DNA of 64,000 bases from Thermoanaerobaculia bacterium (GTDB lineage Bacteria > Acidobacteriota > Thermoanaerobaculia > Multivoradales > Multivoraceae): positions 804 through 64,803 of the forward strand of contig DATKBT010000076.1 in NCBI GenBank assembly GCA_035546295.1, given 5' to 3'. This document shows, in pieces, positions 11,990-62,554 of the stretch (position 1 is the stretch's first letter; each line of letters opens with the position of its first letter). The position numbers and the translations under genes were made by a program. The notes below the pieces were generated by a model, which saw only the letters and a list, made by a program, of their open reading frames with translations, searched no databases and was not told where the DNA came from.

Positions 11990-12811
11990 ATGAGGATCGC
12001 GCTCGCTCAGCACCACGCAACCGAAGATCCTGCGGCCAACCGCGAGCGCGGCCTCGAAGCGGTGGCGACCGCGGCCGCCGGAGGCGCGGAGCTGGTGGCC
12101 TTCGCCGAGCTCGCCTTCGATCCGTTCTACCCCCAGGACGAGGCCCGCCCGGAGAGCCTGGCGGCCGCCGAGCCGATCCCAGGGCCGACCGTCGAGGCCT
12201 TCGCCGAGGCCGCTCGGCGGCACGGCGTCGTTCTGGTGCTCAACCTGTTCGAGCGCGCCGGTGAGCGGACCTACGATTCCTCGCCCGTGATCGACGCCGA
12301 CGGCTCCCTGCTCGGCGTCACCCGCATGATCCATATCACCGACTACCCCTGTTTCCGTGAGCAGGGGTACTACGCCCCCGGCGACACCGGAGCCCCCGTC
12401 TACCGGACCCGCGTCGGACCCATCGGCGTGGCGATCTGCTACGACCGCCACTACCCCGAGTACATGCGAGCGCTCGCGATCGCGGGCGCCGAGCTAGTGG
12501 TGGTGCCGCAGGCCGGCGCCGTCGGCGAGTGGCCGGAGGGGCTGTTCGAGGCCGAGATGCGCGTCGCCGCCTTCCAGAACGGCTACTACACCGCGCTGGT
12601 CAACCGGGTCGGCGAGGAGCGGCGGCTCACCTTCGCCGGCGAGTCGTTCGTCTGCGACCCGGAGGGCCGGGTCGTCGCGCGCGCAGGGACAGGAACCGAC
12701 GAGATCCTCTACGCCGACCTGGACCTCTCCGCCAGCGAGCGATCTCACGCTCGGCGGCTGTTCTTCCGGGATCGACGTCCCGAGCTCTACGCCGGCTGGC
12801 TGGCGCGCTGA
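11990..12811 (+). CDS. carbon-nitrogen hydrolase (nitrilase superfamily)
   Basis: 273 aa; MRIALAQHH start, catalytic-region motifs GVAICYDRHYPE and LVVVPQA; ATG at 11990 in frame. Confidence 0.8.
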   Translation: MRIALAQHHATEDPAANRERGLEAVATAAAGGAELVAFAELAFDPFYPQDEARPESLAAAEPIPGPTVEAFAEAARRHGVVLVLNLFERAGERTYDSSPVIDADGSLLGVTRMIHITDYPCFREQGYYAPGDTGAPVYRTRVGPIGVAICYDRHYPEYMRALAIAGAELVVVPQAGAVGEWPEGLFEAEMRVAAFQNGYYTALVNRVGEERRLTFAGESFVCDPEGRVVARAGTGTDEILYADLDLSASERSHARRLFFRDRRPELYAGWLAR

Positions 12812-12999: not shown

Positions 13000-15474
13000 A
13001 TGGACAGCCTCCGCCGCCTCCTCCGCACCTCGCTGCGCCGTCTGCGCGCGCGCCCAGGATTCACCGCCGTCGCCGTGCTCTCCCTCGCGCTGGGCATCGG
13101 CGCCAACACCGCGATGTTCAGCGTGGTCGACGCGGTCGTGCTGCGCAGCCAGCCGTACGCCGATCCGGAGTCGCTGGTCGAGATCTACATCGACGGCAAG
13201 AGCTTCGAGTACGAGCCGCTGTCGTACCCGGACTTCCTCGACGTGCGCCGCGTCACGGGTGACCTGCTCGAAGGCGTCACCGGCGCCGGCTACACCCTGG
13301 CGCAGGCCGACAAGCGGGGAGGCGGCGTCGAGATGCTCGCCGGTGAGCTGGTGCCAGCGAACTACTTCCGGCTGCTCGGCATCGAGCCGCCGTTGGGACG
13401 CGGCTTCGAGGAGGGCGAGGACGTCGGCGAGGGGGCCTCGCCCGTCGTGGTGCTGAGCTGGGACCGCTTCGTCCAGGCGCACGGCGGCGAGCGCTCGATC
13501 GTCGGCCGCGAGATCCGGCTCAGCGGACGCGCCTACACCGTCGTCGGCGTCGCGCCGCAGAGCTACCACGGCTCGGTGCGCGGCCTGGCTCCCGACTTCT
13601 ACGCGCCCATCACCATGGATGGCGCCTTCTCCCCCGACGACCGGGGGCGTCTCCAGTCGCGCACCTCCCACTGGTTCTTCGTGCGCGGCAGGCTCGCCGA
13701 CGGCGTCGAGCGGGCGGCGCTCGATACCCGTCTCGCGGCCCTCGCCGCCGAGCTGAAGCAGAACGAGCCCGGCAGCTGGGACACGGCGAACGGCTTCACC
13801 ACGGTCCCCACCCGGCAGGTCGTCATGAACCCCATGATCGACAAGTTCCTGTATGCCGGAGGAGCTCTCCTGATGGCGCTGGTCGTAATGGTGCTCACCA
13901 TCACCTGCGCCAACCTCGCCAGCTTCCTGCTCGCACGCGCCGCCGATCAGCGCAAGGAGGTCGCGATCCGCTCGGCGCTCGGCGCGACCCGACGCCAGCT
14001 CGTCGCACAGCAGATGGCCGACGCCGCGATCCTCGCCCTGCTCGGCGGGTCGATCGGCGTCACCGTCGCTTCGGCGCTGGTCTCCCTGCTCGGCTCTCGA
14101 CCGCTACCGGTGGCCATCCCGATCCGCCTCCAGGCCGCGGTCGATGCCCGGATGCTGATCTTCAGCCTCGCCGTCACGCTGCTGTCGGCGCTGCTCTTCG
14201 GCCTGGCCCCGGCGCTCCAGTCGACGCGGGTCGAAGCGGCGCCGGTGCTCAAGGACGAGGGGACCGGCGGCGGCTCGAAGAAGCAGCGGCTGCGCTCCGG
14301 GCTGGTGATCGGCCAGGTCGCGCTCTCGACGCTGCTGCTGGTGGTGGCCGGACTGTTCCTGCGCAGCCTGAGCGCGATGCAGGAGGTCGATCCCGGCTTC
14401 GCCCAGGCGCCGACCGCCATCCTCAACTTCGGCATCCCCCACAGCCATGGCGACGCCGCGCAGCGCCGAGCCTTCATCGACTCGCTCGTCGCCGAGGTCG
14501 CCTCGATGCCCGAGGTCGAGGCGGTCGGGACCATCGACAACCTCCATCTGAACGTCACCAACACCCAGTCCGTCCGGTTCAACATCGACGGACTCGAGCC
14601 TCCGGAAGGTGCCGAAGCCCACCTCGCCGACTACGCCTGGGCCGACGGGGGCTTCTTCGACGCGGCCGGAGTGCGCATCGTCGAGGGACGCCCCTTCGAC
14701 AGCCGCGACCGCAGGACCCTCGAGGAGGGCGAGCGCGAGGCCGCCACCGTCGCCGTCGTTTCCCAGGCGTTCGTCGATCGCTACCTCCCGGATCGCCCCG
14801 CGCTCGGCCAGGTCCTCCATCGGCCGGACAGGGGCGACGTCGAGATCGTGGGCGTCGCCAGCGACACCATGGTGCGGCTGCTGGGCGAAGAACCCCGGCC
14901 CTTCGTCTATCTCTCCGCCGAGCAGGCGGACCAGGTCAACACGACGCTGGTGGCGCGCACCGGCGGCGACGCGACGGCGCTGGTCGCGCGGATTCTCACC
15001 CGCGCCCGGACGCTCGAGCCCGAGCTGATGGTCCTCGAGAGCCGCACGGTCGAGGACCACCTCGCGACCCAGCTCTTCCCCTCGCGCGCGCTCGCCGCCG
15101 CCTTCGTCGTCTTCGGAGCACTGGCGCTGATGATCGCGGCGATCGGTCTGTACGGCGTGGTGAGCTTCACCGTGGCGGCGCGGGCGCGCGAGATCGGCAT
15201 CCGCATGTCGCTCGGCGCCTCCGCCGGCTCGGTCGTCCGGCTGCTGATGCGCGGGGGAGCGGCCCTGGTGCTGCTCGGCGGCGTGACCGGCATCGTCCTG
15301 GCGCTGGTGGTCAGCCGCGTCGCCGGCAGCCTGCTGTTCCGCATCGACACGCAGGATCCGCTGGTCTTCTTCTCGGTGCCCGCGATCCTGCTCCTGGTGG
15401 CCGGTGTCGCGACGTTGCTGCCCACGCTCCGCGCCCTGCAGGTCAGCCCGTCGAGCACGCTGCGCGCGAGCTAG
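13000..15474 (+). CDS. MacB/FtsX-like duplicated permease (ADOP-type ABC transporter permease), no adjacent PadR
   Basis: 824 aa; N-terminal TM right after LRRLRARPGFTAVAVLSLALGIGANTAMFSVVDAVVLR, two FtsX-like 4-TM modules, periplasmic MacB-like domains; same architecture as the three PadR-linked permeases below. Confidence 0.8.
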   Translation: MDSLRRLLRTSLRRLRARPGFTAVAVLSLALGIGANTAMFSVVDAVVLRSQPYADPESLVEIYIDGKSFEYEPLSYPDFLDVRRVTGDLLEGVTGAGYTLAQADKRGGGVEMLAGELVPANYFRLLGIEPPLGRGFEEGEDVGEGASPVVVLSWDRFVQAHGGERSIVGREIRLSGRAYTVVGVAPQSYHGSVRGLAPDFYAPITMDGAFSPDDRGRLQSRTSHWFFVRGRLADGVERAALDTRLAALAAELKQNEPGSWDTANGFTTVPTRQVVMNPMIDKFLYAGGALLMALVVMVLTITCANLASFLLARAADQRKEVAIRSALGATRRQLVAQQMADAAILALLGGSIGVTVASALVSLLGSRPLPVAIPIRLQAAVDARMLIFSLAVTLLSALLFGLAPALQSTRVEAAPVLKDEGTGGGSKKQRLRSGLVIGQVALSTLLLVVAGLFLRSLSAMQEVDPGFAQAPTAILNFGIPHSHGDAAQRRAFIDSLVAEVASMPEVEAVGTIDNLHLNVTNTQSVRFNIDGLEPPEGAEAHLADYAWADGGFFDAAGVRIVEGRPFDSRDRRTLEEGEREAATVAVVSQAFVDRYLPDRPALGQVLHRPDRGDVEIVGVASDTMVRLLGEEPRPFVYLSAEQADQVNTTLVARTGGDATALVARILTRARTLEPELMVLESRTVEDHLATQLFPSRALAAAFVVFGALALMIAAIGLYGVVSFTVAARAREIGIRMSLGASAGSVVRLLMRGGAALVLLGGVTGIVLALVVSRVAGSLLFRIDTQDPLVFFSVPAILLLVAGVATLLPTLRALQVSPSSTLRAS

Positions 15475-17055: not shown

Positions 17056-20706
<3,651 letters not shown>

Positions 20707-21124
20707 GGCGTTGGCCGTCGACTCCTCCGCAGACGTCCCGTTCTGGTCGGCGCCTCCGCCGACGCGGATCCCCGAGTCCCCGGATCTTACCGGCCGACGA
20801 ACGGCGAGCTCGACCCCTGCCAGCCCGTTTGCCAGAAGCCCGAGGCCGAGCGTTCCCCATCGATCGATCGCGCCTCGCTCGGTCGTCGGCCTGGCCAGAG
20901 TCCCCCGCCACGAGGCCTTCCGAACCGGGAACCTGGGCCTCGTCTGCCAGCAGCCGGAGCGCGCGGCTTCGCCATCGCGCCGCACGGGCGGCTGCTCATC
21001 GTCCGCGGCGCCCGCGAGGCCGGGGCCGGAGCGGCCGCATCCGCGTGGCGGTGGGCTGGACGAGCGAGCAGGCGCTCGATCCGGGCAGCCGCTGAGAGGA
21101 CCGACGAGAGCGCGCGAGAGTGCG

Positions 21125-21146
21125 AAGGGCGGCTCGGGCCGCCCCC
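21125..21146 (-). terminator. candidate terminator hairpin downstream of rpoD
   Basis: GGGCGGC-N4-GCCGCCC stem about 45 nt after the rpoD TAA on the minus strand, followed by TT. Confidence 0.35.
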
Positions 21147-21188
21147 TCAATCTCGTGCCGGGCCGCGACGCTCGGGCGCCGCAGTGAG

Positions 21189-22916
<1,728 letters not shown>

Positions 22917-29944: not shown

Positions 29945-31042
29945 TCAGTACCGCAGGAGCGCTGCCACGTTGCCGGCCCGCACCAGCCCCTCGATCGGGT
30001 CGACGAAGTCGACCGAAGCGCCCGTGAGCTGTGCCTGCTCGACCAGCTTCTCGACCAGGTCGAGCCGGAACAGGCTGTCGCCGTTCGTCTCGCAGTAGCG
30101 GCAGGCGTCCAGCTCGCCGGGCATCACGTTGTCGCACTCGCGGCAGTGGACGCCCGGCAGCGTGACGTCGCGGATCACGGCGATCGTCTCGACCCTGCCG
30201 TCCTGCAGCGCGGACCAGACCTCCTCGCCGCCGATCGCGGCCAGATCGTGCGCCAAGGCGTCGCCACAGATGCGCGTCCAGAGGTCGGCCTCCTCCTGCC
30301 GCTCCCGCTCGAAGAAGAGGCGGAACGCCTCCTCCATCAGCTGCTCCTCACCCTCCTTCACGCTCACCTGCTCCTCGCCCACCACCTTCTCGGCGACGCT
30401 CGAGGGCAGTTGCTCCCGGATCTCCCGCAGCGCTTCGGCCGAGCCGAGGAGTACCACGCGCGAGAACTCGACCTCCTTCTCGAGCCTGGCGAGCGCCTCC
30501 CCCACCTCCTTGGCGTAGTGGAGCAGCTCGTTGTCGCGACGGCGCTGATAGCGCTTCTGCGACCAGCCGCCGACCTTGACCCGGTTCTTCACGTCGGCGC
30601 GCACCGAGTCCTCTTCGCGCGGGGTGCCGTCGGCGACCAGGAAGACGCGCGCCCCGCTGTTGTCGGCGGCCACGACCACGAAGGTCTCGTATTCTTCCTG
30701 GAGCTCCGCGAGCGGGCGAATGTAGGGGCAGTCCCCCACCCGCACCAGATCGGGCGGCGACACGTCCAGGGGATACCCCTCGAAGAAGTCGAGGGCGTAC
30801 GAGGCGAACACCGCGAGCCCTTCGGAGTCGAAGGTGTGCGATTCCAGGGAGCGTTCGATGAGCGCGAGGCTCTGCTCGAAATTCTCGAGCTCCTCGGGCC
30901 GGTCGCGGAGGAAGTTGCGCACGCGCTCGGCCCGATCGTCGATCTTGCACATCGACTCGGGGCTCGAGAGGTAGAGGCTGACGAAGGCGCGTTCGGGGCA
31001 CTGGCGCTCGGCGAGCTTGCGCAGATCGATCTTCTGGAGCAA
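29945..31042 (-). CDS. bacterial eRF1/Pelota-like protein (baeRF family) with C-terminal zinc ribbon
   Basis: 365 aa; N-terminal LLQKIDLRKLAERQCPERAFVSLYL, central eRF1-domain-like region, C-terminal CRECDNVMPGELDACRYCE (CxxC ... CxxC); proposed TTG start at 31042 with AGGAG 5 nt upstream; the further upstream ORF extension is Arg-rich noise. Confidence 0.65.
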   Translation of the reverse strand: MLQKIDLRKLAERQCPERAFVSLYLSSPESMCKIDDRAERVRNFLRDRPEELENFEQSLALIERSLESHTFDSEGLAVFASYALDFFEGYPLDVSPPDLVRVGDCPYIRPLAELQEEYETFVVVAADNSGARVFLVADGTPREEDSVRADVKNRVKVGGWSQKRYQRRRDNELLHYAKEVGEALARLEKEVEFSRVVLLGSAEALREIREQLPSSVAEKVVGEEQVSVKEGEEQLMEEAFRLFFERERQEEADLWTRICGDALAHDLAAIGGEEVWSALQDGRVETIAVIRDVTLPGVHCRECDNVMPGELDACRYCETNGDSLFRLDLVEKLVEQAQLTGASVDFVDPIEGLVRAGNVAALLRY

Positions 31043-31282
31043 GGGAACTCCTGGTTCGGGCGAACGTGGTCGGGAGATCGAGACGGAGCCGGCAGCGCGG
31101 CCACACCGGCGACCGACGAGGAAGCAAGCCGCACGCCAACCCGCCGTGCGCGGCGGCTTCCGCGCGCCGTCCGTGGAGCCGGCGGGGTCGGGCAACCCGC
31201 CCGCGGCCTCCGACTCGCGCCTCGCCCGCGGCGCTCGTTGGAGAGTGGTGACCACCACGAGCCCGCTACGTCTCGAAGGCTC

Positions 31283-32134: not shown

Positions 32135-32231
32135 GTCGCTCTCCTTGCCGAGGCCGATGACTGCGGCTCTCGGATCGTTCGTGTCTCTCGGAGGAGCCCA
32201 ACGTGTCGCGGGAGGTTCTGCGCACACCCTA

Positions 32232-32267
32232 CATTGCCTCGGACATTGCCTCGGACATTGCCTCGGC
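32232..32267. repeat. tandem direct repeat, 12-bp unit CATTGCCTCGGA x3
   Basis: cattgcctcgga cattgcctcgga cattgcctcggc read directly; in the divergent intergenic region between the secreted protein (start 32134) and PadR (start 32395). Confidence 0.7.
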
Positions 32268-32394
32268 GACGACCGTTCCACGGGGTCGCCACCTCCGCAC
32301 ACGCGCTGCAACCCGGCCCCGGCGGCGCCGTATACTGTTGTTCCTAGGTATAGAATCAACGGCGTCGAGCACGACGCGTGGACAGGGAGACAGG

Positions 32395-32781
32395 ATGGAG
32401 ATCTTCGAGGAGGGCGAGAGCGAGACGCCGAGCTCGTCCCGCCGCACACAGGTCGACTCGCTGCAGGGCACTCTCGGCGCGATGGTCCTCAAGTCCCTGT
32501 CGCGCGGCCCGCTCCACGGCTACGCCATCGCACGGTGGATCGAGGGGATCGCGGGGGACCAGCTCCTGGTCGAGGAGGGTTCGCTCTACCCCACGCTGCG
32601 CCGGCTCGAGCAGCGGGCCTGGGTGACCTCGCGCTGGGCGGTGTCCGAGACCGGCCGCAAGGTGAAGCTCTACCGGCTGACGACCGACGGCGCGCGTCAG
32701 CTCGACGCCGAGGTGACGCGCTGGCGCAGCTTCGCGGCGGCAGTGAGCCGCGTGCTCGAGGAACCGGGAGGTGCCACGTGA
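32395..32781 (+). CDS. PadR family transcriptional regulator
   Basis: 128 aa; winged-helix signature LKSLSRGPLHGYAIARWIE ... EGSLYPTLRRLEQRAWV; GGGAGACAGG RBS. Confidence 0.85.
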   Translation: MEIFEEGESETPSSSRRTQVDSLQGTLGAMVLKSLSRGPLHGYAIARWIEGIAGDQLLVEEGSLYPTLRRLEQRAWVTSRWAVSETGRKVKLYRLTTDGARQLDAEVTRWRSFAAAVSRVLEEPGGAT

Positions 32782-35417
32782 AGCACGACGAGGAGCGCCC
32801 CACGTACGAGGAGCGTGGCGACGCCGACGCGGAGCTGGAGTTCCACCTCGCGATGAGCGAACGCCGGCTGCGTGAAGAGGGCCTCGACCCGGCCGCCGCC
32901 GCCCGCGAGGCGCGTCGCCGGTTCGGCGATCGGGACCGGGTGCTGTCCGAGTGCCGCCGGCTGGACCGCCGGCTGGCGCGCAGCGAGCGCCGCAACGACG
33001 CCCTGACGGATCTCCGAGGCGACGTCCGTTGCGCGCTGCGCTCGCTGCATGCGAGCCCCGGCTTCACCGTGACCGTCGTCGTCACCCTGGCGCTCGCCAT
33101 CGGCGCCACCACTGCGCTGTTCTCGCTGGTGCGCGGTGTCCTGCTGCAACCGCTCGACTACCGGGAGCCGGGCTCGATCGCGCTGCTGTCGAGCACCTAT
33201 CCCGAGCGCGGCTGGAGCGGGATGCCGCTGCCCCAGGGCCTGTTCCAGGAGCTGCGCGAAGGCGGCGAGGCGATCGAAGAGCTCGCCGTCTACCGATCCC
33301 AACGCGCCACGTTGCTGTCCTCGCTCGAGCCGCGGCGACTGCGCACTGCGGCGGTCTCGCAGAACCTGCTGCGTGTTCTCGGCGTCGAGCCCGCCCTCGG
33401 CCGCGGGTTCCAACCCGACGACTCGTCGAGCGACGGCGGACCGTGCCTGATCAGCCACCGCCTCTGGCGCAGCGAGCTGGGCGGCGATCCCGGGGTGCTC
33501 GGGCGCACCCTCCGGCTCGAAGGAGACGTCGGCCCCTGCCAGGTGATCGGCGTGCTGCCCTCGGGTTTCGCGTTCCCCGAGGCGGAGACGGATCTCTGGC
33601 GGCTCTACCGTCTCGACCCCGGAGAGGATCTCTGGAGCTCGTGGTTCCTCACCGGGGTGGCCCGCATCGCCCCCGGCGCCGATCTGGCGGGCGCACGCGA
33701 GGCCGCCCAGGCCGAGCTCGACCGGCTGACCGAGGGCTGGCGCGACCGTCTCCCCTTCGGCGGCGGCTGGAGTTTCGTGCTGACGCCGATCACCGAGACG
33801 GTGGTCGGCGAGGTCGCGCCGGCGCTGTGGGTGCTGTTCGGGGCGGTCGCGATGGTCCTGCTGATCGCATGCATCGACCTCGGCGGCCTGCTGCTGGCCC
33901 GCACCATCCAGCGCGCAGACGACCTGGCGGTGCGCTCGGCGCTGGGCGCCAGCCGCTGGCGCCTCGCCCGCCAGCTCCTCGTCGAGATCCTGGCGGTCTG
34001 CGGCCTCGGGGGCGCGGCCGGCCTGGTCCTCGCCCACCTCGCCGTGCGCACCTTCCGGGCGCGGCCGCCGGTCGACCTGCCCCGCCTCGAGGAGGTGAGG
34101 ACGGACCCCTGGGTTCTCGGGTTCGCGCTCTCGGTCACGATCCTCTGCGCCCTGCTCGCCTGGATCGCTCCGCTGATCCAGACGCTGCGCGGCCGGATGC
34201 GCTGGAGCTCACGCAGCGGCGTGGCCGGCTCACGCACTCGCTCCCGCCTGCGCGCCTCGTTGGTGGTCGTCGAGGCGGCGCTGACGGTGGCGCTGCTGGT
34301 GGGCACCGGCCTCCTCACGCGCAGCTTCCTCGCCCTCGCCGCCGTCGACCCGGGTTTCGACGTGGGCGGTCGCACCGCGGTCCGGCTCGAGCTGCCGCCG
34401 GCGCGCTACGACGGCGAGGACGCGCAGCGCGACTTCTATGCGCAACTGCTCGAGCGGGTCGCGGCGCTGCCGCCGGTCGCGGCCGCCGGCCTCACCACCG
34501 GGCTGCCGCTGCGAGGCGTGGCCATCATCGACCGTCTCGCGATCGAGGAAGAGGGGGCAGGAGGCGACGACGAGCACCGCCCCGAAGTGGCGATCGACGC
34601 GGTCTCGCCCGGCTACTTCGAGACGATCGGCGTGCCGCTGCTGGAGGGGCGGATGTTCGACGCGCAGGATCGCTCCGGTGGGTCCCGCGTGGCGATCGTC
34701 AACGACGAGATCGCACGCCGGCACTTTCAGGGCGCCTCACCGATCGGCCGGCGGCTGCTCGGCGCCGACGACGAGACGCCGCTCACCATCGTCGGCGTCG
34801 TCGGCTCCGTCAAGCAGTACGGGCTGCGCAAGGAGACGCCGCTCGAGTACTTCGTGCCGTTCGCGCAGCAGCCGCAGGCGAGCGCCCACCTGGTGGTGCG
34901 CAGCGAGCTCGACGCCGAGGCGCTCTCCGCGGGTCTGAAGAGCGTGATCGCCGACCTCGATCCGGCGCTGCCGGTACCCGAGGTCATCGCGCTCGAGCGC
35001 GCGCTCTCGGACTCCGTCGGCCGCGAGCGCTTCTATGCTCTCGCCATGGGTGCCTTCGCCACCCTCGCGGCCGTGCTGGCGACCCTGGGGCTGTACGGCC
35101 TGATCGCGTTCGCGGTCGAGCAGCGACGACGCGAGCTCGGGATCCGCCTGGCGCTGGGCGCGCGCCGCTCGAAACTGTTCCGTTCCGTGGTCGCCGGCGG
35201 CATGGCGCTGGGCGCCGCCGGCGTCGTTCTCGGGCTGGCCGCCGCCCTGCTGCTGGCACGCTCGCTCGGCGGGCTGTTGTTCGGAGTCGGAGCCGCCGAC
35301 CCGGTCGCGATCGCGGCAGCAGCCCTCCTCGTCCTGGTGATCGCGGGGGCTGCTTCGAGCCTGCCGGCGCGGCGGGCGATCCGAGTGGATCCCGCGCGCG
35401 CCTTACGCGGGGACTAA
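32778..35417 (+). CDS. MacB/FtsX-like duplicated permease (ADOP-type), coupled to PadR
   Basis: 879 aa; GTG at 32778 overlaps the PadR TGA (GTGA); N-terminal cytoplasmic helix-rich segment, then TM (FTVTVVVTLALAIGATTALFSLV), two FtsX-like modules. Confidence 0.8.
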   Translation: MKHDEERPTYEERGDADAELEFHLAMSERRLREEGLDPAAAAREARRRFGDRDRVLSECRRLDRRLARSERRNDALTDLRGDVRCALRSLHASPGFTVTVVVTLALAIGATTALFSLVRGVLLQPLDYREPGSIALLSSTYPERGWSGMPLPQGLFQELREGGEAIEELAVYRSQRATLLSSLEPRRLRTAAVSQNLLRVLGVEPALGRGFQPDDSSSDGGPCLISHRLWRSELGGDPGVLGRTLRLEGDVGPCQVIGVLPSGFAFPEAETDLWRLYRLDPGEDLWSSWFLTGVARIAPGADLAGAREAAQAELDRLTEGWRDRLPFGGGWSFVLTPITETVVGEVAPALWVLFGAVAMVLLIACIDLGGLLLARTIQRADDLAVRSALGASRWRLARQLLVEILAVCGLGGAAGLVLAHLAVRTFRARPPVDLPRLEEVRTDPWVLGFALSVTILCALLAWIAPLIQTLRGRMRWSSRSGVAGSRTRSRLRASLVVVEAALTVALLVGTGLLTRSFLALAAVDPGFDVGGRTAVRLELPPARYDGEDAQRDFYAQLLERVAALPPVAAAGLTTGLPLRGVAIIDRLAIEEEGAGGDDEHRPEVAIDAVSPGYFETIGVPLLEGRMFDAQDRSGGSRVAIVNDEIARRHFQGASPIGRRLLGADDETPLTIVGVVGSVKQYGLRKETPLEYFVPFAQQPQASAHLVVRSELDAEALSAGLKSVIADLDPALPVPEVIALERALSDSVGRERFYALAMGAFATLAAVLATLGLYGLIAFAVEQRRRELGIRLALGARRSKLFRSVVAGGMALGAAGVVLGLAAALLLARSLGGLLFGVGAADPVAIAAAALLVLVIAGAASSLPARRAIRVDPARALRGD

Positions 35418-40633: not shown

Positions 40634-43315
40634 CTACGGAGCGGACGCGATCGCCGGCAGCCCCAGACTGCGCACGCCAGATCGGAACGCCGGCTCCTCG
40701 CGGACCGAGTCGAAGACCGGATCGGAAAGCATGTCGAGCACCAGCCGGTTGCGTTCGCCGAAGGCCTTTTCGATCCAGTGCAGGGCGGCATCGCGGGAGC
40801 CCGATCGCAGAGACTGCCGGGCCAGATGATAGGCCGGCACGTACTCGCCCCGCTGCGCGCGAGCCGTCAGATCGTCTCGTCTCGTCCGGGCGTAGGCGCC
40901 GGTGGCGGCGTCGAGCCCGCCTGCGCGGTAGGTCTCGTCGAGCGTGGCCGCCTGCTCGGTGCGGCCGGTCAGGATCAGCGCCTGATGCCAGGCCGAAACC
41001 GCCTCGTGGGCGCGTCCCAGCTCGAGGTAGACGTCGGCGAGACCTTCCACCGTCGCGACATCGTCGGGGTCGAGCTCGAGCGCGCGGCGGTAGAGGCTCG
41101 CCGCCCTCTCGTAGCGACGATCGAGGTACTCCCACCGTGCGGCGAAGGTGTAGGTGCGCGCGGAGCCCGGATCCTGGTCGAGCGCAACCTGGCGGATGCG
41201 CCGGGCCTCCTCCCGACGACCGAGGCCTGCGAGGATCGAGGAGTAGTGGAGGGTGGCTTCCGGGAAGACCCTCACCGCCCGCTCCATCATTCGCTCTCCG
41301 TCGGCCCAGTCGCGACGCCAGTAGATTGCGATCGAGGCCTGCAGCGAGGCCAGCTCCGGCAGGTCCGGATCGAGCTCGAGCACACGCTCGGCGGCACGCT
41401 CGGCCTGCGGCCAGTGCTCGGCCGGGTTCCCCAGACCGTTGGCGGCGGCGAACCCGTGGTAGTGCCCGAGCCCGGTCCAGGCGAGGGCATACCGTGGATC
41501 GACCGCGATCGCACGCTCGAAGGCGCTCCGGCTGCGCAGGTAGTCGCTGCGCGACAGCTTGTTCCAGTAGTAACGGCCCTCGAGGTAGAGCCGGTACGCC
41601 TCGACGTCGTCGGTGTGGAGCTGCGCCACGCGCTCCTGCTCGGCCCCGCTGAGGCTGCGATGGAGGTGGTCGAGGACGTCGGCCGTGACCTCTTCGTGGA
41701 GCGACGTGAGCTCCGAGAGGCCGAGCTCGTAGCGGCGTCCCCACAGGTGGGAGTCGTCTCGCGCATCGACCAGCTCGACGCTCATCGTCAGGCGATCGCC
41801 CCGGCTCTCGAGACGGCCCGTCAGCACGCTGCGCACGTCGAGCTCACGTCCGATCTCGCGCGAGGTCGACAGCGGCCGCCCCTTGTACCGGAAGACCGCG
41901 GCCCGAGAGACGACGCGCAAGCCGCCGGACTGAGCGAGACTTTGGATGAGGCTCTCGGTCACGCCGTCGCTGAGGTAGTCGAGCTCGGGGTCGCTGCTCC
42001 CGTTGTCGAGCGGCAGCACTGCGATCGAGTCGATCCGCGATAGACCCCAGAGCCCCAGCAGGCGCCAGGAGCCGAGCAGCGCAGCCACCACGACGAGCGC
42101 CAGCCCGGCCATCCCCGCTGGCGATCGCGCGCGCGGGCGGATCGTCCCCCGGGAGCTCGTTGCGCGGGGAGGCGAGCGCGGAGTCGACAGAGCTCCGGCG
42201 CCGTTGCGCTCGCGCCAACCGGTCGCCCCTCGAGCCGACCGCCACTCCCCGCGTCGCTGCTTCAGCTCCAGCGCGAGGGTCGCCGCGTCCGAGAATCGGT
42301 CGGCGCGGTCCTTGGCCAGGATCCGAGCCACCAGCTCGTCGACGCCGGCGGGCAGCCCCGACCGGCGGCGGCTCGGCGGCTCGGGCGCCGCCAGCAGGAT
42401 GCTCGCCAGCAGATCGGACGGCGTCTCGGCTTCGAACGGACGGCTGCCGGTGACCATCTCGTAGAGCACCACGCCGAGGCTCCAGAGGTCGCTGCGGGCG
42501 TCGATCGGCCGTCCGCGCGCCTGCTCCGGGGACATGTAGGCGAGGGTGCCCAGCACCGCGCCCTCGAGCGTGGCGCTGGGCCCCGCGGGCTCGCCGCCGA
42601 GGGCCGATGGACGCAGGCTCTTGGCGATCCCGAAGTCGAGGATCTTGACCAGTCCGTCCGGGCGCAGCATCACGTTCTCGGGCTTGATGTCGCGATGGAC
42701 GAGGCCGGCTCGATGAGCCGCAGCCAGCCCCAGGGCGATCTGAGCGGCGACGTCGAGCGCAACGTCGATCTCGAGGGGCCCCCGTTCGAGGCGCTGCCTG
42801 AGGCTCTCGCCTTCGACCAGCTCGGTGACCAGCAGGTCGAAGTCGTCGTGCTCTGCGATCTCGTGGACCGTGACGATGTTCGGATGGTTGAGCGCCGAGG
42901 CGGCGAGCGCCTCGCGGCGGAATCGCCGGCGCCGATCGAGATCCTCACGCAGGTGGGCGGGAACCAGCTTGAGCGCCACCGCACGCTCGAGGAGCGGATC
43001 GCGAGCCCGGTACACCTCGCCCATGCCGCCGGTGCCGATGCGCGCCTCGACCTCGAATCGTCCCACTCGCCCGCCGACCAGGCTCGATCCCGCTCCGCGA
43101 GCGATCAGCCGGGCGGCCTCCGGCACCACGTCCTCCTCGAGGAAGCCGTCCTCCCGGTCATGCGCCAGCAGCAGCTCGACCTCGCGGCGCAGCCCCTCGT
43201 CGCCCGCGCACTCGCGATCGAGGAAGCGCCGGCGGTCTCCCTCGCCGAGACCGAGCGATGCGTTGAACAGCTCGTCGATCCGCCGCCAGCGCTCCGGGCT
43301 CATGGAGGGGTTCAT
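40634..43315 (-). CDS. Ser/Thr protein kinase with TM segment and periplasmic TPR-like repeats, ECF-sigma-associated
   Basis: 893 aa; N-terminal MSPERWRRIDELFNASLGL ... REVELLLAH motif; kinase GTGGMGEVYRARD ... HRDIKPENVML ... DFGIAK ... SPEQ; TM (LALVVVAALLGSWRLLGLW); C-terminal TPR-like repeats; ATG overlaps the sigma stop (ATGA). Confidence 0.8.
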   Translation of the reverse strand: MNPSMSPERWRRIDELFNASLGLGEGDRRRFLDRECAGDEGLRREVELLLAHDREDGFLEEDVVPEAARLIARGAGSSLVGGRVGRFEVEARIGTGGMGEVYRARDPLLERAVALKLVPAHLREDLDRRRRFRREALAASALNHPNIVTVHEIAEHDDFDLLVTELVEGESLRQRLERGPLEIDVALDVAAQIALGLAAAHRAGLVHRDIKPENVMLRPDGLVKILDFGIAKSLRPSALGGEPAGPSATLEGAVLGTLAYMSPEQARGRPIDARSDLWSLGVVLYEMVTGSRPFEAETPSDLLASILLAAPEPPSRRRSGLPAGVDELVARILAKDRADRFSDAATLALELKQRRGEWRSARGATGWRERNGAGALSTPRSPPRATSSRGTIRPRARSPAGMAGLALVVVAALLGSWRLLGLWGLSRIDSIAVLPLDNGSSDPELDYLSDGVTESLIQSLAQSGGLRVVSRAAVFRYKGRPLSTSREIGRELDVRSVLTGRLESRGDRLTMSVELVDARDDSHLWGRRYELGLSELTSLHEEVTADVLDHLHRSLSGAEQERVAQLHTDDVEAYRLYLEGRYYWNKLSRSDYLRSRSAFERAIAVDPRYALAWTGLGHYHGFAAANGLGNPAEHWPQAERAAERVLELDPDLPELASLQASIAIYWRRDWADGERMMERAVRVFPEATLHYSSILAGLGRREEARRIRQVALDQDPGSARTYTFAARWEYLDRRYERAASLYRRALELDPDDVATVEGLADVYLELGRAHEAVSAWHQALILTGRTEQAATLDETYRAGGLDAATGAYARTRRDDLTARAQRGEYVPAYHLARQSLRSGSRDAALHWIEKAFGERNRLVLDMLSDPVFDSVREEPAFRSGVRSLGLPAIASAP

Positions 43316-43884
43316 CCGGACTCGATCTCGCGTCTCAGGAACGCCCTTGCGCCGCGCCAGTCGCGAGTGACCGTGTCAGGGTGCACCCCGAGCACCTCGG
43401 CGGTCTCCTCGACGCTCAACCCGCCGAAGTAGCGCATCTCGACGACGCGGCTCTTCCTGAGGTCGACTCGCGACAGAGACCGCAGGGCATCGTCGAGCGC
43501 CACCAGCGCGTCGGCGCGTCGATCGTCGAGGACGCAGGCCTCGTCGAGCGGCAGAGGACGAATGCCGCCACCGCGTTTGGCGAAGGCGACCCGGCGTGCG
43601 TGATCGACCAGGATGCGACGCATCACGGTGGCCGCGATCGCGAAGAAGTGGGCGCGGTTCTGCCATTCGACGCGCTGGCGCACGAGCTTCAGGTAAGCCT
43701 CGTTGACCAGCGCGGTGGTCTGCAGCGTGTGGCCGGGGCGCTCGCGACCGAGATAGCCGTGAGCCAGACGGTGGAGCTCCGCTTCGACCAGGGGCAGCAG
43801 CCGGTCGAATGCGCCCTGGTCGCCGCCGCCCCAGGCCTGGAGCAACTCGGTGACGTCCTCGGTCGAGGATCTGGCCTCGCTCAA
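43312..43884 (-). CDS. ECF-family RNA polymerase sigma factor (kinase-associated subgroup)
   Basis: 190 aa; sigma-70 region 2 (LVNEAYLKL ... AHFFAIAATVMRRILVDHAR) and region 4 (EMRYFGGLSVEETAEVLGVHPDTVTRDWRGARAFL). Confidence 0.85.
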   Translation of the reverse strand: MSEARSSTEDVTELLQAWGGGDQGAFDRLLPLVEAELHRLAHGYLGRERPGHTLQTTALVNEAYLKLVRQRVEWQNRAHFFAIAATVMRRILVDHARRVAFAKRGGGIRPLPLDEACVLDDRRADALVALDDALRSLSRVDLRKSRVVEMRYFGGLSVEETAEVLGVHPDTVTRDWRGARAFLRREIESG

Positions 43885-46238: not shown

Positions 46239-46285
46239 ATCTGTAGACTGCCTTTATCTGTAGACTGACAGATATCAGTCATCCG
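46239..46285. promoter_or_regulatory. AT-rich promoter island with direct repeat ATCTGTAGACTG x2 and inverted repeat GACTGA-N6-TCAGTC (candidate PadR operator)
   Basis: catctgtagactgcctttatctgtagactgacagatatcagtc read directly, ending 13 nt upstream of the PadR ATG at 46298; strongly AT-biased relative to the surroundings. Confidence 0.4.
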
Positions 46286-46297
46286 ACCGACACCGAG

Positions 46298-46687
46298 ATG
46301 GACCCGACCGATCACCTGCCTCTCGCGCCCCGCGACCTCCTCATCCTCGCCGTGCTCTCCGAGGGGCCAACGCATGGCTACGGCCTGATCAAGTCGGTCG
46401 AAGCGCGATCGCGTGCGGGGGTCCTGCTCGACCCCGCGAACCTCTACCGGGTGCTCCGGAGGATGCGCAACGACGGATGGATCCGCCAGACCCGGAGCGA
46501 GGCGACCCCGACCGAGGCGACCCCAACCGCGGCGAACCCGCGGGGCATCGCCGAGACCGATGGGAACGACGGCGCGCGCCGCCGCACCTACGAGATCACG
46601 TCCGAGGGTCGCTCGATTCTCGCGGCCGAGCTGTCCCGGCTCGAGCTGCTGCTCGAGCAGGCGCGGTCCACGGCGAGCCGAACGTGA
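46298..46687 (+). CDS. PadR family transcriptional regulator
   Basis: 129 aa; LAVLSEGPTHGYGLIKSVE ... PANLYRVLRRMRNDGWI; contains a short EATPT EATPT duplication. Confidence 0.85.
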   Translation: MDPTDHLPLAPRDLLILAVLSEGPTHGYGLIKSVEARSRAGVLLDPANLYRVLRRMRNDGWIRQTRSEATPTEATPTAANPRGIAETDGNDGARRRTYEITSEGRSILAAELSRLELLLEQARSTASRT

Positions 46688-49341
46688 AGGAATCACCCGC
46701 GCTCGCCGTCCGCCTCTACGCGGCGGCGCTGCGACTCCTGCCGCCCGTCGTCCGAAGTGAGGACGAGGGGGAGATGCTTCACGCGTTCGAGTCGATGTGG
46801 CAGGAGCGGAGAGGACCGGCCGCGCGCCTCGCGCTCGTCGGCCGGCTGTTCGGCCGACTGCCGCTCGCGGTGGCGGCCGAATGGCTCGACGTACTGGGGG
46901 AGCTGGTCAGCGACATCAGGAGAGGAGCGACCATGGACGCCATCTTTCACGACCTCGGCCAGGCCTTGCGCGCAGTGCGCAGAGACCTCAGCCTCTTCGT
47001 CTTCGCCAGCGCGGTCGTCGGGCTCGGCGTCGGAGCCGCGACCGCGGTGTTCAGCGTCATGAGCCCGCTGATGCTCCGGCCGCTTCCCTTCGAGGAGCCG
47101 GAACGGCTCGTCTGGATCGCCAACGAGCACCCCGAGCTCGGTCTGTCCGGAGTGACCTCGCGCACCGGCAACCTCCGCGACTTCCGTGAGCTGAGCGACT
47201 CCTTCGCAGGACTCACCGGCTACTTCGCCTTCTTCGAGGGCAACAGCGAGAACCTCGTCGCCGACGGCGAGCCCGAGAGCGTCGTCGGCGTCGGCGTGGC
47301 TCACGACTTCCTCGACGTGCTCGGCGTCCAGCCGGTGATCGGCCGGAGCTTCCTACCGGAGGAGGGTCTCGACGAGGGGCGCCGGGTCGTCCTGCTCTCC
47401 CACGGCTTCTGGACGCGCCGCTACGCCAGCGACCCGAGTCTCGTCGGCCGCGCGATCACGCTCGACGGACGGCCGCACGAGGTCGTCGGTGTCCTCCCGG
47501 CGTCCTTCGACTTCGCCGGCCTCTTCGCTCCCGGGGCCCGCGTCGACTTTCTCCGGCCGTTCCCGATCACCAGCGAGACCGATCGGTGGGGCAATACGCT
47601 CGCCATGATCGGACGCCTGGCGGCGGGCGCGTCGGCGGCGAGCGCGCAGGCCGAGCTCGACCGCGTCATCGAGGCGCTCGAGCAGGCGGACTCCGAACGC
47701 TGGGGGCTGGGGGCGGTGGTGTCGCCGCTCGACCAGCACATCGCCGGTCCGTTCCGCACCGGCTTCCTGCTGCTGGCGCTGGCGGCCGGCGGCATGGTGC
47801 TGATCGTCAGCGTCAACCTCTCGAACCTGCTGCTGGCGAGAAGCCCGCGTCGGATCCAGGAGATGGCCGTGCGCAACGCTCTCGGCGCCGGTCGCGGGCG
47901 GCTGGTTCGCCAGCTCGTCTTCGAGAGCCTGGTGACTTCCGCCTCCGGAGCCATCGTCGGGATCGTGATCGCGGCGATCGCGGTCGAGCTGGTGACCGTC
48001 AGCGGCATCCCCATCCCCCTGCTGCGCACCGCCTCGATCGACGCGCCGGTGCTCGTCTTCAGTGTCTCCGTTGCGGCGGTGACCGGCCTCCTGATCGGCG
48101 TGCTGCCCGCCATCCTGGTCACCCGGCGCGGCGGCCTCGCGGCGGCCGTCCCCGGCCGCAGCGCCGGCGGCGGCAGACGCACCCGCCGTCTGCGCGAGGC
48201 TCTGGTGCTGAGTGAGATCGCGCTCGCGTGCGTGCTGCTGATCAGCGGGGGCCTCCTCCTCCGCAGCTTCCAGCGCGTGCTGGACGTCGACCTCGGCTTC
48301 GAGCCCGACGGCGCGATCGCCTGGGAGATCGCACCCACCCGCGGGTTCGAGAACCTGCAGGCCAAGAACGCCTACTTCGACCAGCTCGCGCAGCGCGTGG
48401 CGGCAGTGCCGGGGGTCGACGCCGTCGGCCTCAGCGACGCGCTGCCGATGGTGCGCAACCGCTCGTGGGGCGTGCGCGCCGCCGACCTCGAACGGCGGGA
48501 GGACGACCAGAACGAGGCCTTCCCCCACCTCGTCGACCACCGTTACATCGGCGCCCTCGGCATTCCCGTGATCAGCGGGCGCTCGTTGAGCCCAGACGAC
48601 ACCGCGAAGACCGAACGGGTCGCGGTGATCAACGAGACCGCGGCGAGAGTGCTGTTTCGCGATCCCGCGCCGATCGACCGGATGCTGATCGCCGGGCCGG
48701 AGTGGCGGGTGGTGGGCGTGGTCTCGGACGTCCGTCACCTGTCGCCCGAGGAGCAGGCCGGACCCGAGGTCTATTTTCCGTACACTCAGCACGGCGACTT
48801 CGACTCGATGGCCCTGGTCGTGCGCTCGAGGCTCGCGACCGAGGTCCTGACGCCCAGCGTCGGCGCCGCCATTCGAGCCTTCGATCCCGCCCTACCCTCC
48901 CGCGAGTACCAGACCCTCGGCGCGATCGTCGACCGTTCGTTGTCACCGCGCCGGTTCACGACCTCGCTGCTCGCCGCCTTCGCGGCGGCCGCCCTCCTGC
49001 TCGCGGCGGTCGGCATCTACGGAGTTCTCTCCTACGCGGTGACCGAGCGGACCGCCGAGATCAGCATCCGCATCGCTTTGGGCGAGTCGGCGGGCGAGGT
49101 GTGGCGGCGGGTCGTCGGCCGCTCGCTGCTGCTCGCTCTCTTCGGTGTCGGAGCCGGGCTGGCGCTCTCGTTGCTCCTTTCACGGTGGATCGGCTCGCTG
49201 CTCTACGGAGTCGACTCGACGGACCCGCCGACGATCGTCGCAATGACGAGCACCCTGCTCGCGACCGCCCTGCTCGCGGGGGCGCTGCCGGCACGCCGGG
49301 CCTCGCGGATCGATCCCGCCCGCCTGCTGGCGCAGAGCTGA
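46684..49341 (+). CDS. MacB/FtsX-like duplicated permease (ADOP-type), coupled to PadR
   Basis: 885 aa; GTG at 46684 overlaps the PadR TGA (GTGA); TM after LRAVRRDLSLFVFASAVVGLGVGAATAVFSVM; two FtsX-like modules. Confidence 0.8.
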   Translation: MKESPALAVRLYAAALRLLPPVVRSEDEGEMLHAFESMWQERRGPAARLALVGRLFGRLPLAVAAEWLDVLGELVSDIRRGATMDAIFHDLGQALRAVRRDLSLFVFASAVVGLGVGAATAVFSVMSPLMLRPLPFEEPERLVWIANEHPELGLSGVTSRTGNLRDFRELSDSFAGLTGYFAFFEGNSENLVADGEPESVVGVGVAHDFLDVLGVQPVIGRSFLPEEGLDEGRRVVLLSHGFWTRRYASDPSLVGRAITLDGRPHEVVGVLPASFDFAGLFAPGARVDFLRPFPITSETDRWGNTLAMIGRLAAGASAASAQAELDRVIEALEQADSERWGLGAVVSPLDQHIAGPFRTGFLLLALAAGGMVLIVSVNLSNLLLARSPRRIQEMAVRNALGAGRGRLVRQLVFESLVTSASGAIVGIVIAAIAVELVTVSGIPIPLLRTASIDAPVLVFSVSVAAVTGLLIGVLPAILVTRRGGLAAAVPGRSAGGGRRTRRLREALVLSEIALACVLLISGGLLLRSFQRVLDVDLGFEPDGAIAWEIAPTRGFENLQAKNAYFDQLAQRVAAVPGVDAVGLSDALPMVRNRSWGVRAADLERREDDQNEAFPHLVDHRYIGALGIPVISGRSLSPDDTAKTERVAVINETAARVLFRDPAPIDRMLIAGPEWRVVGVVSDVRHLSPEEQAGPEVYFPYTQHGDFDSMALVVRSRLATEVLTPSVGAAIRAFDPALPSREYQTLGAIVDRSLSPRRFTTSLLAAFAAAALLLAAVGIYGVLSYAVTERTAEISIRIALGESAGEVWRRVVGRSLLLALFGVGAGLALSLLLSRWIGSLLYGVDSTDPPTIVAMTSTLLATALLAGALPARRASRIDPARLLAQS

Positions 49342-57011: not shown

Positions 57012-57306
57012 CATGCGCTTCCGCTTCGACTGCTCCGGCCGCTACCAATCCAGAGTGCGGCTGTTCCTCGGGACGATGAGGGTGCGTGAGGCAGGGGAGT
57101 TCCGCGCCTCCGACGGCGTGCTCCACCTGAGTCGCGCCGACGGGTCCCTCACCGCCTGGAGGTACCGTTTCGACGGCTCGATCCTGCGCCTCGAGGAGGC
57201 GCCGGGAGAATGGCACGACTACCGGCGCCTTGCCGTCGCGGCCTGCGCTCGACCGGCGAGCCCTCGAGACGCACGGCTCGAGTCGGCGGCGAAGCAACCT
57301 CTATGA
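57012..57306 (+). CDS. small hypothetical protein (97 aa), low confidence
   Basis: MRFRFDCSGRYQSRVRLFLGTMRVREAGEFRASDGVLHLSRADGSLTAWRYRFDGSILRLEEAPGEWHDYRRL has an alternating hydrophobic, protein-like pattern and high GC3; it is the tail of a longer noise ORF; ends 22 nt before the PadR start. Confidence 0.3.
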
Positions 57307-57327
57307 AAGAAACTCGTATAGTGCAGC

Positions 57328-57687
57328 ATGCCGCCTGGCCGCCCCCCGACGCCCGCTGCGCTCAAGCCCGTCGATCTCCACGTCCTGCTCGCGCTGCGAG
57401 CGGGTGATCGCCACGGCTACGGGCTGGTCCAGGACCTCGAGGAGCAGAGTGCCGGACGACTGCGCCTGGCGCCCGCGAGCCTCTACACGGTCCTGCAGCG
57501 GCTGCTCGACTGGGGCTGGATCGAAGAGGCCGACGTCCCGCTGGTCGCCTCGGCCGGTCCGCCGCGACGTCTCTACCGGCTGACCGGCGCCGGGGCGGCC
57601 GCGCTCGGGGCGGAGACCGAGCGCCTGCGCGACCTGCTGGCGCGCCTGGACTCGGGATCCTTCGCCGATCCGGAGCGCGCGCGGTGA
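57328..57687 (+). CDS. PadR family transcriptional regulator
   Basis: 119 aa; LHVLLALRAGDRHGYGLVQDLE ... PASLYTVLQRLLDWGWI. Confidence 0.85.
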   Translation: MPPGRPPTPAALKPVDLHVLLALRAGDRHGYGLVQDLEEQSAGRLRLAPASLYTVLQRLLDWGWIEEADVPLVASAGPPRRLYRLTGAGAAALGAETERLRDLLARLDSGSFADPERAR

Positions 57688-60414: not shown

Positions 60415-62316
<1,902 letters not shown>

Positions 62317-62554
62317 CGGGAGCTTGGATCGGAGCGACACCGCTCGCCGGCGCGCGAGCAGGTCGGCGAAGTGTAGTGCCCCAGGCTGCCGGTCACGATC
62401 GGGCTCGACCCCAGGCACCGTCGAAGACGAGCGCACGCTCCTGCTGCGCCTCTCGCCCCGGAGATCGGGGGCGCACATGGGATGCCGATCGCGCCGGCGC
62501 CGAGGATCCTCGGTCCTTCGCCGTGCCGCCGCGGCGATCCTGCTGGCCGCCTCC

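Follow-up and report, generated by a model that had tools for sequence, protein, structure and literature searches.

PadR genes track a cytoplasmic N-terminal prefix of duplicated ADOP permeases in a Thermoanaerobaculia genome and in other loci

In a 64-kb stretch of DNA (the window; ~70% G+C) from a Thermoanaerobaculia bacterium of the Acidobacteriota, three genes for PadR-type regulators are each followed directly by a gene for a duplicated permease of the ADOP family, and a fourth ADOP gene stands without a PadR gene. We find, here and in other genomes and metagenomes, that the PadR gene is linked to a short cytoplasmic segment at the permease N terminus (the prefix) and that the PadR subfamily co-varies with the type of prefix. 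Because of this linkage and co-variation, and because one prefix type is also carried by membrane proteins that are not ADOPs, we regard PadR plus prefix as the conserved unit and the permease as one of several interchangeable membrane bodies. The regulator's partner appears to be the short N-terminal cytoplasmic domain and not the permease body. On balance, we lean toward each PadR-ADOP cassette being a self-contained two-gene module, probably autorepressed, of the PadR-HAAS dyad type, with the prefix as the partner of its PadR.

All three cassettes are on the forward strand. PadR1 (32395 to 32781; 128 amino acids [aa], padR_acidobact type; Pfam PadR, 70.5 bits) precedes ADOP1 (32778 to 35417; 879 aa, a prefix plus an eight-transmembrane-segment duplicated MacB_PCD/FtsX permease; TIGR03434, 794 bits), PadR2 (46298 to 46687; 129 aa, divergent PadR subfamily; Pfam PadR, 53.8 bits) precedes ADOP2 (46684 to 49341; 885 aa; TIGR03434, 729 bits), and PadR3 (57328 to 57687; 119 aa, divergent PadR subfamily; Pfam PadR, 58.2 bits) precedes ADOP3 (57684 to 60404; 906 aa; TIGR03434, 713 bits). 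Each permease gene begins with a GTG that lies on the TGA stop of its PadR gene with a 4-nucleotide (nt) overlap (ccacGTGAagc, gaacGTGAagg, and cgcgGTGAgcc for cassettes 1, 2, and 3, respectively). The prefix-less ADOP4 (13000 to 15474, forward strand; 824 aa; TIGR03434, 743 bits) has an ATG start, its conserved core runs from residue 2 to 8 onward, and its upstream neighbor is a carbon-nitrogen hydrolase gene that ends at 12811. An initial annotation of this DNA had described these same pairs, each a PadR gene followed by an ADOP-type duplicated MacB/FtsX permease gene, together with a fourth permease without PadR; the coordinates hold, and the identities are borne out by the Pfam and NCBIfam models. 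The GTG starts are supported by public records of matching length (P0001, an 879-aa product from a Thermoanaerobaculia metagenome-assembled genome that is 100% identical to ADOP1, and P0121, likewise of 906 aa, for ADOP3), by the alignment of the NCBIfam prefix model NF038403, which begins at residue 12 of ADOP1, and by the G+C content of third codon positions, which across the prefix regions peaks in the permease frame (0.92, 0.85, and 0.88 in ADOP1, ADOP2, and ADOP3).

The curated cutoff of TIGR03434 (ADOP family duplicated permease; 622.3 bits) is passed by all four permeases. Each has two MacB_PCD and two FtsX domains in Pfam and eight transmembrane (TM) segments by hydropathy, and the internal duplication is seen in BLASTP alignments of the N-terminal with the C-terminal half (E values of 1e-3 to 3e-6). 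PadR1 is above the cutoff of TIGR03433 (padR_acidobact; 120.8 bits against 101.8), and its nearest solved structures are short PadR/LmrR-type regulators. PadR2 and PadR3 score 55.7 and 56.5 bits, under that cutoff though they pass Pfam PadR, and they belong to a different PadR subfamily, which pairs with the second prefix type described below. PadR2 also has a ~25-aa insertion with an EATPT-EATPT repeat in its wing region (46496 to 46573) that is missing from all other aligned PadRs. Pairwise identities are 29 to 34% among the permeases and 33 to 44% among the PadRs, the latter over partial alignments; the cassettes are old paralogs and not recent duplicates, as had been proposed for the permeases. 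Given the TIGR03434 and TIGR03433 matches and the Thermoanaerobaculia source, they are instances of a PadR-ADOP pairing that is already catalogued for acidobacteria, with the proteins themselves present in public databases. The TIGR03433 family reportedly occurs regularly beside TIGR03434 genes. In the ADOP literature we found only passing annotation mentions of a duplicated orphan permease in Acidobacteria, and no solved ADOP structure was found, those of MacB being the nearest. The family also extends beyond the Acidobacteriota, with Gemmatimonadota and Verrucomicrobiota loci present in our survey.

The PadR-linked ADOP1, ADOP2, and ADOP3 start with a cytoplasmic prefix of 77 to 94 aa; the first TM segment lies at about aa 100 to 125 in these permeases versus aa 24 to 42 in ADOP4. 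The length ahead of the conserved core is bimodal among 120 homologs, at 2 aa in 52 of them and 58 to 92 aa in ~65. Two prefix types are present in the window. The ADOP1 prefix (32778 to 33008, forward strand) is of type 1 (perm_prefix_1, HAAS-related), with helices predicted at aa 16 to 33, 38 to 49, and 52 to 81. Those of ADOP2 and ADOP3 are of type 2 and have the motif LYPRxFRxxFGxEM; the ADOP2 prefix (46684 to 46938, forward strand; LYxxALRLLPxxxR...GEM motif) aligns with the type-2 family, and the ADOP3 prefix (57684 to 57965, forward strand; LHRLALALYPRSFRERFGEEL) has helices predicted at aa 5 to 18, 22 to 46, and 48 to 75, followed by a Pro-rich linker. AlphaFold2 gives three helices in both prefixes that were modelled, with predicted local distance difference test scores of 82 (ADOP1) and 80 (ADOP3). 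NF038403 (perm_prefix_1; cutoff, 30 bits) matches ADOP1 with 36.7 bits over the whole protein and 41.6 bits over the prefix alone, and it does not match ADOP2 or ADOP3 even at an E value of ≤10. Among type-1 prefixes, 10 of 28 match Pfam HAAS (PF22564; gathering score, 27; best E value, 6.3e-6) and no other family was matched more than twice, and we read type 1 as HAAS-related at the level of the family, although the window sequences do not individually qualify as HAAS; the type-1 profile found nothing significant among PDB sequences. In type 1, G35 is invariant and sits in a GxxP turn, and helix 3 is preceded by a near-conserved FG(D/N)(P/V); in type 2, the stretch joining helices 1 and 2 contains an invariant YP-R motif. 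These motifs may or may not correspond in register to the conserved GxP of the published HAAS domain, which goes with a kinked third helix and forms the interaction groove. We note that an in-frame ATG lies 2 to 4 codons before the core in ADOP2 (46933) and ADOP3 (57960), at exactly the position where prefix-less ADOPs start, and translation from this internal ATG might yield an isoform without the prefix.

Our survey comprised 136 full-length ADOPs, drawn from the window and from 80 loci of species-representative genomes, in which ADOP cores, PadRs, and prefixes were annotated with purpose-built hidden Markov models. PadR lies directly upstream of 30 of the 48 prefix-bearing ADOPs, and seven more are in tandem arrays headed by PadR. 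Among 76 prefix-less ADOPs, 75 have no PadR, and the one with a PadR (L026) has an in-frame stop that probably reflects a frameshift. The association of PadR with the prefix (37/48 prefixed versus 1/76 prefix-less) has a Fisher P of ~5e-21. An apparent PadR upstream of the second ADOP of locus L017 is an out-of-frame partial match and was discounted. The differences among the N-terminal segments of the window permeases had been taken to indicate paralogy; they are more than evidence of paralogy, since the prefix is what ties PadR to permease.

The type-2 prefix is not confined to ADOPs. An exhaustive search of 1.84 billion representatives yielded 38 type-2 prefix homologs, some of them on ADOPs and others on multi-TM proteins unrelated to these, and two of the non-ADOP carriers (P0130, 469 aa, and P0145, 344 aa) have PadR directly upstream. 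A metagenome scan for the type-2 prefix, with six closer sequences as the query, returned 80 loci, and a PadR gene ends at the prefix in 58 of the 63 that have enough upstream DNA. Of the bodies behind these metagenomic prefixes, 10 are ADOPs; the 37 other complete ones are membrane proteins mostly of 185 to 250 aa with three to seven TM segments. PadRs of prefix 1 are 47% identical among themselves and only 24% identical to the PadRs of type-2 prefixes; the PadR subfamily and the prefix type co-vary.

The surveyed loci also differ in gene order. Prefix-less ADOPs are often in tandem arrays of three to four, and in some of these one or two genes for MacB/LolD-class ATPases close the array or lie within it (L003, L023, L028, L048, L055, and others), and prefixed ADOPs occur in arrays of two to three behind a single PadR (L007, L009, L036, L045, and L080). 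Two tandem ADOPs in L058 (2178 to 7532) have a third prefix type, also found in P0094, with no PadR detected upstream even at relaxed thresholds. The commonest type-2 carrier in the metagenomic loci (L085 to L164) is a family of membrane proteins of ~237 to 249 aa with four to seven TM segments, whose genes overlap the end of the PadR gene by 11 nt (ATGgccacTAA, with the ATG 8 nt ahead of the PadR stop).

The identical GTGA junctions of the three cassettes had been taken in the initial annotation to imply strict translational coupling. The overlap is present in all three, but the tetranucleotide is generic: a 4-nt overlap is seen in 6 of the 18 same-strand neighbor pairs of the window, three of which are unrelated pairs with ATGA, and GTGA identity as such therefore carries no special information. 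Nor is it universal among type-1 pairs elsewhere (n = 29), where there are seven NTGA junctions, three other overlaps, and mostly gaps of 0 to 35 nt in the rest. Overlap is the rule at type-2 junctions, in 45 of 51 nonredundant cases (11 nt long in 32 and 4 nt long in 12), and translational coupling of PadR and permease is plausible for this reason. Tight coupling as a family trait is consistent with co-production of two interacting proteins.

Each cassette also has its own AT-rich upstream island, as previously annotated. A GC content of ≤43% over 30 nt is reached in only six stretches of the 64 kb, three of which are immediately upstream of the three PadR starts, and none is found upstream of ADOP4. 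The island before PadR1 (32327 to 32362, forward strand) includes the lowest-GC 30-mer of the region (0.33) and a 26-nt block, ATACTGTTGTTCCTAGGTATAGAATC, with a −10-like hexamer (TAGAAT/TATGAT) and an inverted repeat (ATAC-N12-GTAT) with a central CCTAGG. The block is kept in the orthologous loci L081 (75% protein identity) and L001 (59%), and the flanks diverge. It contains a putative −10 element (TAGAAT) that overlaps a putative operator, the former assigned only from the conserved TAGAAT/TATGAT. Before PadR2, the island (46239 to 46290, forward strand) has two copies of the direct repeat ATCTGTAGACTG and a palindrome, ATCTGT-N6-ACAGAT, that is a putative operator; before PadR3 (57290 to 57326, forward strand), a TATAGT lies 6 nt ahead of the ATG, and this transcript may be leaderless. 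Many other PadR loci have their own distinct palindrome in an AT-rich spot upstream, and the upstream elements suggest PadR autorepression. Three perfect tandem copies of ACATTGCCTCGG (ACAT every 12 nt) occupy 32231 to 32266, ~65 nt upstream of the operator-like block, in the divergent intergenic region between a minus-strand gene for a secreted protein (start at ~32134) and PadR1.

These arrangements suggest a mechanism, for which we infer the physical binding of PadR and prefix, autorepression, the inducing signal, and an ATPase acting in trans. A PadR dimer would bind within the AT-rich island, at a palindrome overlapping the promoter of its own gene. The downstream gene, read from the overlapping GTGA, would give an eight-TM ADOP permease of fused MacB-like halves with two periplasmic MacB_PCD domains, and its cytoplasmic three-helix N terminus of 77 to 94 aa would be the protein with which that PadR partners. 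Engagement of an envelope or periplasmic substrate by the permease would make the prefix alter its hold on, or release of, PadR and the module would be induced, the permease being both sensor and induced effector, as in BceAB-type flux sensing. ATP hydrolysis would be provided by a MacB/LolD-class ATPase encoded elsewhere. ADOP4, with neither prefix nor PadR, would belong to the other subclass and act as a plain transporter subunit.

Several observations weigh against this mechanism. About 11 of the prefix-bearing ADOPs have no PadR within the fetched DNA. The ADOP1 prefix scores 10.8 to 12.4 bits against Pfam HAAS, below the 27-bit threshold, and neither Pfam nor NCBIfam has a match for the type-2 prefix carried by ADOP2 and ADOP3. 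Comparison of the type-2 with the type-1 profile gives an hhalign probability of 12.8%, and Foldseek, run against the PDB with both AlphaFold2 prefix models, returned nothing with an E value below 2. A scan for consensus sigma-70 elements upstream of PadR1 found no promoter, and the 64-kb window has no transporter-type ATP-binding cassette (ABC) ATPase. The precedent of Listeria LftR/LftS, in which LftS is dispensable for LftR repression of lieAB (PMC4517056), also counts against it; the partner's effect may therefore go in either direction and may not be needed.

The standing of the type-2 prefix is a separate matter. No similarity of its sequence to HAAS, DUF1700, or DUF1048 could be detected; Pfam scans of 18 type-2 members gave nothing recurrent, and a type-2 profile search of a set of 5.8 billion proteins gave 17 short proteins, all without Pfam domains. 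It may be either a divergent HAAS or a separate domain. We propose only tentatively, and with some doubt, that the LYPRxFRxxFGxEM prefix represents a second family of PadR-partner domains, one that as yet lacks a model. If so, each genome of soil Acidobacteriota would have dozens of insulated PadR circuits in which ADOPs are the sensor-effectors, a form of membrane-tethered one-component signalling parallel to sigma/anti-sigma pairs.

The strongest competing explanation is a classic ligand-sensing PadR, as in LmrR/LmrCD, which would bind a small toxic molecule, leave its operator, and derepress an efflux-type permease. The prefix would then lie outside regulation and could serve membrane insertion, oligomerization, or ATPase docking. 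Such a regulator would fit the proximity of PadR1 to LmrR-type PadRs, the standard drug-responsive layout of a regulator-transporter bicistron with an upstream palindrome, and the behavior of Listeria LftR, which represses a transporter without need for LftS. It does not account for PadR going with the prefix and not with the permease, with a single PadR among the 76 prefix-less ADOPs, nor for the PadR that is still upstream when the same prefix is on unrelated small membrane proteins, nor for the co-variation of PadR subfamily and prefix type. We consider ligand sensing unlikely, though deserving of serious attention.

The dyad mechanism calls for an ATPase, and a further, rather improbable alternative is that the ADOPs are true orphans that work without any, as sensors or scaffolds for PadR sequestration or with another energy source, and with no substrate moved. 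The family is named for the absence of an ATPase, and the initial annotation had reported no ATPase partner beside any of the three cassettes. This is confirmed in the window, where the only ABC ATPase is a Uup-like ABC-F protein (60415 to 62478, reverse strand; two ABC_tran domains, ABC_tran_Xtn, and ABC_tran_CTD) that is outside the PadR-ADOP system; it scores 796 bits with NF050005, below the cutoff of 900 bits, and is convergent with ADOP3, 10 nt past its stop. Among 20 neighboring open reading frames (ORFs) scanned, covering part of the window, there are no MacA/HlyD or TolC genes. No ATPase gene is present beside the orthologous loci L001 and L081, and no surveyed prefix-bearing ADOP has an adjacent ATPase of its own. 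A consistently adjacent ABC ATPase in related genomes would speak against orphan status, and we find ~240-aa ATPase genes of the MacB/LolD/FtsE/DarD class beside ADOP genes at only ~8 of the 80 loci, always next to prefix-less copies (in L007 the ATPase gene comes after the prefix-less ADOP), so that the orphan reading is not refuted. These ~8 loci nonetheless argue against full independence from ATPases, and so do the most conserved residues of the family, which in each half fall in the cytoplasmic loop between TM2 and TM3 (R375, R386, G390, and A391; E786, R790, and G794). In MacB structures the coupling helix occupies this position, and MacB-type permeases contact their ATPase there. The analysis covered 64 kb of the source genome, and judged from this much we favor ATPases encoded in trans over true independence, because of the conserved loop and the linked ATPases. 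That the pairing has no functional meaning, with two families that are both greatly expanded in the phylum (7349 ADOP matches) adjacent by chance at a GTGA whose 4-nt overlap is generic and seen in 6 of the window's 18 same-strand neighbor pairs, is extremely improbable and effectively refuted by the linkage statistics, and order, strand, and junction are moreover identical in all three cassettes, the pair recurs at 30 other loci in several phyla, and the L081 ortholog retains both pair and overlap.

Other genes of the window include an apparent fourth cassette on the minus strand (43312 to 43884 and 40634 to 43315, with an ATGA overlap), which was rejected as a PadR-ADOP pair: it consists of an extracytoplasmic function (ECF) sigma factor gene (PF07638; 43312 to 43884) followed by the gene for an 893-aa Ser/Thr protein kinase with tetratricopeptide repeats (40634 to 43315). 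The junction of this sigma/kinase pair (40634 to 43884, minus strand) is of the same type as those of the PadR cassettes. A single ORF of 1560 aa at 17056 to 21738 (minus strand) has two protein-kinase domains and could be one giant kinase or two genes fused by a high-GC open frame. At 29945 to 31258 (minus strand) a 437-aa protein has a bacterial archaeo-eukaryotic release-factor-like domain (baeRF_family10).

In soil Acidobacteriota, ADOPs and the PadRs that go with them rank with the largest families of paralogs, and none of their members is known to have an established function. The pairing itself is already catalogued in TIGR03433/TIGR03434 and in the 2024 HAAS-PadR proposal, and neither is changed by the present results. 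What is added here is the prefix-centered view, the second and unmodelled prefix/PadR class of cassettes 2 and 3, and the split of ADOPs into prefixed and prefix-less forms. This sharpens the framing: the conserved partner of the regulator would be the N-terminal domain of 77 to 94 aa, with at least two cognate PadR/prefix classes, and the prefix-less ADOPs would be a separate, unregulated subclass that is sometimes ATPase linked. It can guide the choice of pairs for binding tests and the design of constructs.

The window copies differ in nothing essential from the ADOP family (TIGR03434), sharing with it a score above the cutoff, two MacB_PCD and two FtsX domains, eight TM segments, the lack of an adjacent transporter ATPase, and an acidobacterial host. 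PadR1 likewise belongs to padR_acidobact (TIGR03433), and PadR2 and PadR3 are outside it. The dyad of HAAS and a PadR-like winged helix-turn-helix protein has been proposed as an alternative to two-component systems, with HAAS fusions to FtsX-like TM and MacB/PCD domains explicitly included (e.g., ACO32024.1) and with DUF1048 assigned to the HAAS superfamily (mSystems 2024, PMC11237479). The cassettes share with it a stand-alone PadR directly upstream of a membrane protein with a predicted three-helix cytoplasmic N terminus, and the genomic coupling on which such a dyad depends is found (37 of 48 prefixed ADOPs and 58 of 63 type-2 loci versus 1 of 76 prefix-less ADOPs). They differ from it in the subthreshold HAAS score of ADOP1 and in the lack of detectable HAAS similarity in the ADOP2 and ADOP3 prefix. 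LftR/LftS of Listeria monocytogenes is a bicistron of PadR and a DUF1048 partner in which the PadR represses an ABC transporter operon (PMC4517056). It is the only example of PadR-HAAS known to have been studied, in part, and shares with the cassettes the bicistronic arrangement of PadR and small partner. LftS is reportedly a small separate protein that is not fused to a transporter, and the regulated lieAB genes are said to be unlinked and of another ABC class.

The permease bodies compare with MacB, LolCDE, and FtsEX (MacB-type, type VII), and the C-terminal half of ADOP1 aligns with 5GKO, 5NIK, and 5LIL (E values of 2e-16 to 2e-10). The topology, in which each half has four TM segments and a periplasmic domain, and the conserved cytoplasmic TM2-TM3 loop are shared; the two halves are fused in one chain in ADOPs, in contrast to the homo- or heterodimers of the MacB type, and ADOPs have no fused or adjacent ATPase. 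In BceAB-BceRS flux sensing, a MacB-type permease is both the sensor for a transcription system and the induced resistance effector; for signalling, BceAB relies on a histidine kinase, and an ATPase of its own lies adjacent. The likeness to the cassettes is one of analogy only, with the proposed output here being a PadR repressor that would be contacted by the N-terminal domain of the permease.

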